Source of the DNA: an uncultured Nitrososphaerota archaeon
GTDB lineage: Archaea; Asgardarchaeota; Njordarchaeia; Njordarchaeales; Panguiarchaeaceae
Assembly: GCA_964636085.1 (NCBI GenBank)
Contig: CAZWPQ010000032.1
Span: forward strand, 1 to 25,460
Direction: 5' to 3'
DNA length: 25,460 bases
Below are positions 10,877-12,250 of the stretch, piece by piece. The notes beneath the pieces were generated by a model. It did not search any database, was not told the DNA's origin, and was given only the letters and a program-made list of their open reading frames with translations. Both the position numbers and the translations under genes were made by a program. Each line of letters begins with the position of its first letter. Within the stretch, counting starts at the first letter, position 1.

Positions 10877-12250
10877 TTATCCAAATAGTATATTCAATCC
10901 TGCTAATCCCGAAAGCTCTTCCTCGATTTCAAGCTCTTTTTTTACTTTTTGTTGCTCGATTATGGCCTGTATTACGTGAAGCGGTAATTCGAATGCTATT
11001 GCCATATCTTGTATTAGTTGATGTGTTATCTCCCTTCCCTCCGCATATTTTTGTATCTGTTCCCTAATAGTTTTCGGTACTGCATATCCTGCACATATTG
11101 CTACGCTTTCACTTCTTTTAATCGCCCTCTCTATCTCTCTTGTTCTAGTCGGTTCCCCGAATGGTACCACGATGTTTTGTTTCTCTATTTCCTCCAGAAG
11201 CCTCTGCCACCATTCTACAGGAAGTTTTTGTCCTGCGAATATTTCTGCTATTGGTTTTTGTGTTTTTAATGCAAGCTGTATTACTCCTGGTATTGTTATT
11301 ACTCTTCCTTCTAGAATCGCTATTCCTTTTTCTTTTGCCAATATGTTTATTGCTGCTCGTACTTGTTGTGCTGTTAGTCCCAGTTGTTCTGCTATCTTCT
11401 CTATGCTTATTGCAACTGGTTTGTCTCCGATTTCTTCTAAGAGTTTCTTTACTCTTTCTATCGGTGGAAAGTTCATCCATTCTAGTTTTTCTATCTCCAT
11501 CGCTAATTCTAGTTTTCTGGGTTTTACTGCTGTTGACGGTATTTTTTCTATTCTTAGGTCTGCTATTAGCTCATCCACTGTATGATATCGTTCGTCTGGG
11601 TTCTCCATCAAACACTTCACTATTAGTGGTCTCATATACTCTGGCATTCTCGTGAATGCTAGTGTTTCTGGTTTTGTCCCCTCTATCATTTCGTATAGTA
11701 GTATTCCGAGCTGGTATATGTCTGTTCTCTCGTCTATTATTGCTGGGTCTTTTTTTCTTTGTTCTGGTGCTTCGTATCCTGGTGTGTATTGGACGATGTT
11801 GTCTTCCTCCATTATTAGTATTGCGTCTTCCCAGTCTGTTAGTTTTGGTGTGTTTGTTTCGTCTAATAGGATGTTCTCTGGTTTTATGTCTCCATGGACT
11901 ATGCCTAGTTCATGTGCTTGTCTTAGTGCGTTTGCTATGCCGAGTATTATTCCCTTTGCTACGCTTGCTGGGAGTCTTCCCTTCTTCTCTAGTATTTGTC
12001 CTAGTGTTTTTGGGTAGTGCCTTATTATGAATTTTGCATTATTCTCATCGAAGCTTAGGAGTCTTGCAGTGTTTGGGTTCTTGTTCAGTTTCTCCATCCA
12101 TATTTTTGCCCTCTTCCTAAAGTATTCTATTTCTTTTGGTGATATTGTGAATGCTGGAGCCTTAACAACGACCTTTTCCCCGTTCATTTCTCCTAGCCAT
12201 ACATTCCATCTTGGCGAGGAGTGAAGCCTCTTTATGTACCTTATGGCCAT
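10877..12250 (-). CDS. Hanks-type Ser/Thr protein kinase + winged-helix-like region + ribosomal stalk (aP0-like) C-terminal region
   Basis: VVVK, HGDIKPENIL, DWE, YTPGYEAPE and TDIYQLG kinase motifs. ISIEKIAEQLGLTAQQVRAAI is HTH-like. C-terminus is EEELSGLAGLNILFG. The kinase fold is secure; the stalk homology is by eye. Confidence 0.9.
   Translation of the reverse strand: MAIRYIKRLHSSPRWNVWLGEMNGEKVVVKAPAFTISPKEIEYFRKRAKIWMEKLNKNPNTARLLSFDENNAKFIIRHYPKTLGQILEKKGRLPASVAKGIILGIANALRQAHELGIVHGDIKPENILLDETNTPKLTDWEDAILIMEEDNIVQYTPGYEAPEQRKKDPAIIDERTDIYQLGILLYEMIEGTKPETLAFTRMPEYMRPLIVKCLMENPDERYHTVDELIADLRIEKIPSTAVKPRKLELAMEIEKLEWMNFPPIERVKKLLEEIGDKPVAISIEKIAEQLGLTAQQVRAAINILAKEKGIAILEGRVITIPGVIQLALKTQKPIAEIFAGQKLPVEWWQRLLEEIEKQNIVVPFGEPTRTREIERAIKRSESVAICAGYAVPKTIREQIQKYAEGREITHQLIQDMAIAFELPLHVIQAIIEQQKVKKELEIEEELSGLAGLNILFG

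Follow-up and report, generated by a model that had tools for sequence, protein, structure and literature searches.

An archaeal Hanks-type kinase with a ribosomal stalk-like C-terminus: a possible mimic of the stalk anchor aP0

Why would an archaeal protein kinase end in a sequence that resembles the C-terminus of the ribosomal stalk? The question is raised by P0001, a minus-strand gene in a stretch of 25,460 nucleotides from an uncultured Nitrososphaerota archaeon of the Njordarchaeia (the window hereafter, at its full length). The original prediction had described its product as a kinase-stalk fusion, in which a tail modelled on the stalk protein aP1 recruits translational GTPases to a kinase. 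The features that our account draws on are the following.

10877..12250, minus strand: the whole gene P0001, an intact ORF of 457 aa comprising a kinase, tandem winged helices and a stalk-like tail
11546..12250, minus strand: Hanks-type kinase domain (aa 1-235), from Pfam and fold matches
10955..11479, minus strand: tandem winged-helix region (aa 258-432) of the AF2 model, common to WD40-ended relatives at 47-72% identity
11045..11152, minus strand: segment resembling the aP0 spine repeat (aa 367-402), from an aP0 repeat profile and HHalign
11102..11134, minus strand: copy-specific remodelled helix (aa 373-383) with I373, A376, S380 and V383, from private substitutions
10880..10954, minus strand: C-terminal helix and tail of 25 aa (aa 433-457) replacing the WD40 array, the last 15 aa (10880-10924) being stalk-like

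Gene integrity, domain layout and relatives

The reading frame is intact from 10877 to 12250, and its translation has the C-terminus originally ascribed to it. The stretch is represented in two hydrothermal vent runs and one sediment run, and P0001 is identical wherever contigs of the three runs cover the gene. Its tail junction is crossed with 0 differences by contigs of runs X1 (10672-11792), X2 (10743-11385) and X3 (10869-11033), which belong to three studies, one of them possibly the source sample. Since contigs of all three runs bridge the junction without a difference, the join between the wHTH region and the tail is real, and a chimeric assembly, the artefact that the original prediction had itself raised, is excluded. 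The kinase and first winged-helix region are under purifying selection (pN 0.08-0.15 vs pS 0.43-0.56). Promoter and terminator scans around the gene gave signals at chance level, and no flanking repeats marking an insertion were found around it.

The surrounding region is decaying, as judged from the frameshifted HEPN, nucleotidyltransferase (MNT) and PaREP1 genes that flank P0001. The HEPN gene (10042-10535, minus strand) and the nucleotidyltransferase gene after it (9683-10041, minus strand) are each split across two frames, and these breaks look real because run X1 contigs match without difference. One PaREP1-family gene (12418-12923, minus strand) is split by a frameshift near 12700-12780 and another (21952-22251, plus strand) is cut short. 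Elsewhere, the gene at 13016-13639 (plus strand) encodes a coiled-coil plus PD-(D/E)XK-like protein and contains an exact 42-bp tandem repeat at 13152-13235; its copy number varies or has been collapsed, since a run X2 contig is without one copy. The 191-aa ORF at 17676-18251 (plus strand) consists of two halves, each of about 75 aa and nearly identical to the other; apart from a borderline AF2212-like score, Pfam gave nothing for it that reached the cut-off.

The assignment of the N-terminal part to the Hanks-type kinases holds. Pfam PF00069 (Pkinase) matches with 82.1 bits against a cut-off of 31.7 (E 5.7e-23, aa 52-194), and the fold is that of PknB/PknA (Foldseek E 3e-14 to PknB). The protein keeps K30 (the β3 Lys), the catalytic residues D121, K123 and N126, the metal-binding D139, the APE motif (161-163) and D177. 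Its deviations comprise the absence of the Gly-rich loop (GxGxxG), an Arg (R47) at the αC Glu position, DWE in place of DFG and a non-RD catalytic loop. Close relatives, themselves under purifying selection, carry the same deviations, and the atypical active site is therefore not decay of this copy; kinase-domain pN against four relatives is 0.09-0.15 vs pS 0.45-0.52. Judging from the sequence, the Glu of DWE may substitute for the missing αC Glu. The defence kinases PD-T4-6, MADS Mad6 and Stk2 match in the kinase domain only (PADLOC, best E 7.9e-31, aa 68-194), the known kinase defence systems (PD-T4-6, MADS, Stk2, BREX PglW) score far below NCBIfam cut-offs, and none of their partner genes is present in the window. 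The PD-T4-6, MADS and Stk2 matches are generic kinase similarity and no evidence of membership. P0001 belongs to the kinase superfamily, in which its active site is atypical, and to neither aP0 nor aP1.

The middle part, initially recognised as wHTH-like, is indeed modelled as tandem winged helices (AF2 C-terminal model, pLDDT 86.9), with Pfam wHTH matches staying below cut-off. The best matches of this model, UFL1/DDRGK1 and SelB, are weak (best Foldseek E 9.5e-4, TM 0.23-0.31; Atlas TM 0.38), and VIA matched the region to single wHTH domains with Z at most 8.3. Pfam, NCBIfam, PDB sequence and ESM Atlas feature searches returned no named match for aa 340-457.

Its relatives are more telling. 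All seven relatives found with the same middle domain (P0002-P0005, P0121, G003:C192 and the host paralogue G000:C29) continue into WD40, which is therefore the likely ancestral state. Identity to the WD40-ended relatives over the kinase and wHTH region is 42-71%, and the closest named relative belongs to a Candidatus Njordarchaeota genome. The only grouping that a tree resolves unites P0001 with five of the WD40-ended proteins and sets two others apart. P0001 differs from the Njordarchaeia kinase-wHTH-WD40 proteins in the 25-aa tail that replaces WD40 and in the rewritten aa 372-382. The WD40 array is absent from it, the stop being at 10877, and no significant remnant is found downstream in any frame; the remnant that appears by eye after the stop is not significant, its score being equalled by 73% of control regions. 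The host has an expanded set of some eight multidomain Hanks kinases. Winged-helix-like arrays are present in most of them, and their end modules are swapped between WD40, TPR, LRR or none (contigs C7, C22, C29, C38, C46, C48 and C52 of G000). The relatives of G003 and of P0005 differ in blade number, and an FHA-domain gene follows P0005. We found no experimental description of Njordarchaeia kinase-wHTH-WD40 proteins in the literature.

The stalk-like tail

Residues L449, G451, L452, L455, F456 and G457 align without gaps to L100, G102, L103, L106, F107 and G108 of Pyrococcus horikoshii aP1. Binding of aP1 to aEF1A, aEF2 and ABCE1 requires L103, L106 and F107 and is aided by L100, and ABCE1 is activated even without G108 (PMC4267659, PMC6125642); a 14-mer stalk peptide suffices for aEF1A binding (PMC6791870). 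All four aP1 residues mapped as important for factor binding are thus present in P0001, at its true C-terminus, and the claim that both Leu, the Phe and the terminal position of the motif are matched is borne out. Of the partners then proposed for the motif, aEF1A, aEF2 and ABCE1 are those of the cited papers, whereas binding of aIF5B was not found in the literature searched. Genes for aEF1A (G000:C9), aIF5B (C58) and ABCE1 (C10) are all present in the host, as are two aEF2-like genes. The latter (G000:C34:11957-14137 and C6:28019-29425) both score below the TIGR00490 cut-off, and either protein could be the partner of the tail.

When a profile built from 67 aP0/aP1 tails was scored on 2882 host ORF ends, the P0001 tail came third with 18.7 bits, after aP1 (44.4) and aP0 (37.1) and before the next end at 10.5 (background mean -25.7, sd 7.9 bits). 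It is the best non-stalk C-terminus of the host proteome, and the score of its 8-residue core is reached at only 3 of 616,999 proteome positions. The tail nevertheless lies below every true stalk tail (in-sample minimum 30.1 bits), because its acidic run is shifted by two residues and an Ile precedes LF. HHalign probability is low both for the tail (34%) and for the spine likeness described below (13%). Among stalk tails, that of P0001 comes closest to those of aP0 from its own genus (8 of 12 residues identical), which read LAGL-S/N/R-LLF and have, as in P0001, a bulky residue before LF; this residue is A or S in all 34 aP1s. Like the aP1 peptide bound to aEF1A/ABCE1, the tail combines the C-terminal motif with a predicted long helix (one long helix in the C-terminal AF2 model; aa 447-457 under pLDDT 50 in the full-length model). 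It differs from aP1 (PF00428) in having no dimerisation domain and in Asn-Ile where aP1 has small residues; PF00428 matches only the host aP1, and the aP1 profile misses P0001. Taken together, the likeness of this tail to the ribosomal stalk is real, statistically strong and no assembly artefact.

Several observations on other stalk-like ends were made along the way. The host aP0 (G000:C1:140423-141445) and aP1 (C1:168458-168793) genes are 27 kb apart, and aP0 ends in LAGLSLLF, the final Gly being absent here as in the further aP0s read for the genus. The sister genus g3 has the two genes side by side, with tails that are mostly identical to each other. Fourth on the tail profile, with the 10.5 bits given above, is a 119-aa orphan (G000:C1:2338-2697, plus strand; L216:839-1198) with a compact N-part, a long acidic linker and the end EEGIFDIF. 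Copies occur throughout the genus (all five genomes) and in one further genome; of these, only the one in G003 has a similar end. A 203-aa viral ORF (L199:7958-8569, plus strand; IMG/VR UViG 3300025132_000021, a 160-kb contig) has the stalk-like motif twice, internally after an acidic run and at the C-terminus (FAGLGSLFG-stop), and by its sequence is a candidate viral stalk-tail mimic.

A second stalk-tailed kinase was found neither in 5.8 billion clustered proteins (queried with the whole protein or aa 398-457), nor in 1.84 billion representatives, nor in metagenome, genome or viral contigs. Among the readable ends in 14 Njordarchaeia genomes (66-91% completeness), where several kinase ORFs run off the locus or contig, no other kinase has a stalk-like tail. 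Conservation of the tail had been proposed as a check on its function, and the outcome is negative: no homologue has it. Within the scope of these searches P0001 represents a single-species innovation rather than a conserved kinase-stalk family. Since neither the tail nor the spine-like segment is present in any relative, conservation cannot vouch for the function of either. We found no description of a kinase carrying its own stalk tail in the open-access literature searched, which lacks most subscription papers.

A segment resembling the aP0 spine

The second likeness to the stalk lies within the winged-helix region. On a spine profile derived from 124 repeats of real aP0s and scored over 577,943 host positions, aa 367-402 rank first with 13.9 bits, the same segment scoring -3.4 to -22.5 bits in seven relatives, as against at least 37 bits (in-sample) for true aP0 repeats. 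HHalign gives the segment an E of 0.0022 vs 0.06 and 0.19 for two relatives. With three separate aP0 training sets (Njord-only, other-Asgard and non-Asgard) the rank is 1-41 of about 580,000 at 27-36 columns and 16-539 if only the 20-column helix is used. About half of the likeness is ancestral, several WD40 relatives reaching 10-13 bits, and this ancestral part lies downstream; the new portion comes from aa 372-382.

It is in this short stretch that seven of the 14 private substitutions of P0001 fall, inside one 15-aa span, a concentration matched in 0 of 300 permutations and comparable to no cluster in any relative. Here pN is 0.37-0.51, about equal to pS, while among relatives it is 0.11-0.22. 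A compensated frameshift at aa 372-382 was considered as well, but the codon alignment gives no support for it. Each aP0 helix binds an aP1 dimer through residues at -5, -2, +2 and +5 (PMC3616719). In P0001, I373, A376, S380 and V383 have this spacing, where relatives mostly have A, S, K/R and V; the counterparts in P. horikoshii aP0 (3A1Y), counted from sequence, are I243, A246, A250 and V253. The clustered substitutions also remove a conserved Ile (I379R). Against nulls made by mutating a relative, the gain in spine score has P about 0.002, although the true odds are less extreme, because the nulls mutate the relative at the same sites with no amphipathic helix required and the spine lead was picked after the fact.

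Complex prediction for aa 362-412 with two host aP1 N-domains gave an ipSAE of 0.55, the best of three controls, none of which was the matching segment of a WD40-type relative, reaching 0.01; we regard this result as weak. Among 80 solved pairs 58 pass the ipSAE mark, only 7 of them with a score of 0.60 or under; of 110 mismatched pairs 2 pass it, both in that low range. Between runs at least 72% of contacts agree, with a partner pLDDT of at least 55. The score may show likeness only, because a similar complex (3A1Y) has already been solved. Moreover, aa 383-392 are a β-hairpin wing in the AF2 model; since the aP0 site consists of an uninterrupted helix, binding of aP1 would need local refolding.

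In its spine-like helix with the -5/-2/+2/+5 spacing and in the terminal L-x-x-L-x-x-L-F after an acidic run, P0001 resembles archaeal aP0/uL10 (PF00466 and PF17777; P. horikoshii 3A1Y). It is without the rRNA-binding N-domain, domain II and the long Ala/acidic hinge of aP0, and has one weak spine copy where aP0 has two or three, with a winged helix of the kinase family in between; aa 1-432 as a whole belong to that family by sequence. The aP1 model of the original prediction therefore needs to be amended: the stalk likeness stands, but given the private remodelling of aa 372-382 towards the aP0 spine helix, the closest model is aP0 rather than aP1.

Origin, possible function and implications

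How did a kinase come by two stalk-like features? The presumed kinase-stalk fusion looks instead like remodelling in place, with no DNA likeness to a stalk gene beyond the residues in common. Since two private remodellings both point at aP0, selection for mimicry of its C-terminal half is the simplest account, and we give about even chances to P0001 being a lineage-specific aP0 mimic, remodelled in place, that docks its kinase on stalk partners. About half of this estimate includes a working spine. The other half, in which the tail is a functional stalk mimic, the spine likeness a by-product of local repacking and aP1 left unbound, is counted within the same estimate and, taken by itself, is unlikely. 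The tail statistics are indeed stronger than those of the spine, the wing folds as a hairpin and the aP1 complex score is a weak pass; yet the clustered substitutions give a hydrophobic face at just the -5/-2/+2/+5 spacing, and the loss of a conserved Ile through I379R fits a new partner better than neutral repacking.

The main rival to selected mimicry is accidental likeness. P0001 would then be a kinase-wHTH-WD40 gene truncated before its sensor, whose product acts simply as a kinase or adaptor, or which is slowly decaying, with no link to the stalk; its tail would be the drifted start of WD40 blade 1 or read-through DNA, and the changes at aa 372-382 would merely repack or relax a helix no longer supporting a propeller. 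The tail does sit where blade 1 begins in the relatives and is alignable to it, with I, E, G, A, L and F common with the host C29 paralogue, and a WD40-start profile places it, in this register, among the top 0.5% of positions. However, its score there is negative (-3.1 bits), true stalk tails score as high on the same profile, and a randomly mutated blade start attains the stalk score with P <= 6e-5 over 16 columns and 3e-3 at most over the core. That the spine likeness is partly ancestral, both likenesses arising from sequence already half-resembling aP0, makes an accident easier to conceive, and so do the frameshifted HEPN, MNT and PaREP1 neighbours, the truncated look of another host paralogue (C52, which stops after the wHTH array), the single occurrence of a P0001-type protein and the existence of unrelated phage proteins that end in the same hydrophobic core, without acidic residues. 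Still, two separate private changes would both have to point at aP0 by chance, and relaxed selection would not place half of the private changes in 11 residues with pN low elsewhere. On these grounds we consider an accident rather unlikely. Capture by recombination appears improbable. In this reading the WD40 array gave way to a short tract copied from a stalk gene (aP0 or aP1), of the same archaeon or of a neighbour, which brought in the tail and possibly also the spine patch, whether or not these later took on a function. Such a capture would agree with the swapping of C-terminal modules in this kinase family (WD40, TPR, LRR or none in host paralogues) and with a tail closest to the aP0 tails of the same genus. 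But of the last 27 bases, 17-19 agree with the aP0 ends of the genus, roughly as many as the common residues dictate, and neither the sequence upstream nor that beyond the stop shows similarity. The spine patch still resembles the relatives codon by codon, with an ordinary pS. A recent copy of a host stalk gene is ruled out by the lack of a blastn match to either of them, and descent of the last 100 aa from aP0 by aa 383-432, which are plainly homologous, ordinary kinase-family sequence. Finally, a selected acidic-hydrophobic tail might serve another ligand: its own kinase lobe, a PCNA-type clamp, a protease, or a stalk-recognising viral protein, the kinase then being a decoy-triggered sensor. 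The tail occupies the variable sensor-domain position of a sensor-kinase-like family, stalk tails activate GCN2 in eukaryotes (PMC6421407), and clamp-binding motifs of a similar kind (L-x-x-F-F) terminate several replication proteins of the host; the tail, however, is without the Q and FF of clamp motifs, which rank far lower on the stalk profile, and nothing in the data points to another ligand, which makes this reading very improbable.

If P0001 is an aP0 mimic remodelled in place, its ancestor would have belonged to the Njordarchaeia family of proteins with a kinase, a winged-helix array and a repeat sensor. The WD40 sensor would have been lost in the P0001 lineage, and selection would have reshaped two sites in place until they resembled the C-terminal half of the stalk anchor. 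The tail would form a helix that enters the pockets in which aEF1A, aEF2 or ABCE1 receive aP1, and on this premise it very probably does bind a translation factor. The spine-like helix may additionally bind a free aP1 dimer, and thus acquire two further tails, an event that on the same premise is as plausible as its opposite; the captured dimer would add useful valency, because a single stalk tail binds at only about 4-24 µM. The kinase, thereby brought to translation factors or aP1, would phosphorylate them, its catalytic activity being, again on this premise, rather probable. Were it inactive, the partners would be held away from the ribosome. The outcome of phosphorylation or sequestration would be a damping of translation. 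Recruitment and phosphorylation of factors, translation shut-off and a defence role are what we infer; what suggests defence or stress is solely the toxin-antitoxin-rich neighbourhood together with the sensor-like layout of the family.

A bolder version, which we hold to be doubtful, is that of a soluble, kinase-bearing mini-stalk reached by convergence. Point changes would have turned a wHTH segment into an aP1-dimer site and a WD40 stub into a docking tail, so that aP1 is assembled off the ribosome, aEF1A, aEF2 and ABCE1 are pooled on three tails, and these factors, or aP1, are phosphorylated to shut translation down. If true, the kinase mini-stalk would be an archaeal counterpart, by other means, of eukaryotic stalk-linked kinase control. 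In GCN2, too, a protein kinase is tied to the stalk and, by inference in the case of P0001, to translation control (PMC6421407); GCN2 reads the ribosomal stalk through domains of its own and, judging from the abstract, carries no stalk copy. P0001 has no HisRS-like or RWD domain. Within archaea, SsoPK4 is likewise a Hanks-type kinase, shown to phosphorylate aIF2-α in vitro, and for P0001 also a translation factor is a possible substrate; the abstract on SsoPK4 mentions no stalk-like docking motif (PMC5217372).

Without binding, P0001 would be a one-species curiosity. The alternative is cheap to explore, because aP1 peptide assays, mutants and co-crystals with aEF1A and ABCE1 exist, and the WD40-ended relatives are ready negative controls. 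Control of elongation and ribosome recycling by phosphorylation is a largely open field in archaea, and the host lineage is filed by GTDB under Asgardarchaeota. If binding is as predicted, P0001 would represent a signalling kinase redirected to the translation machinery through some two dozen residue changes in imitation of the stalk anchor.
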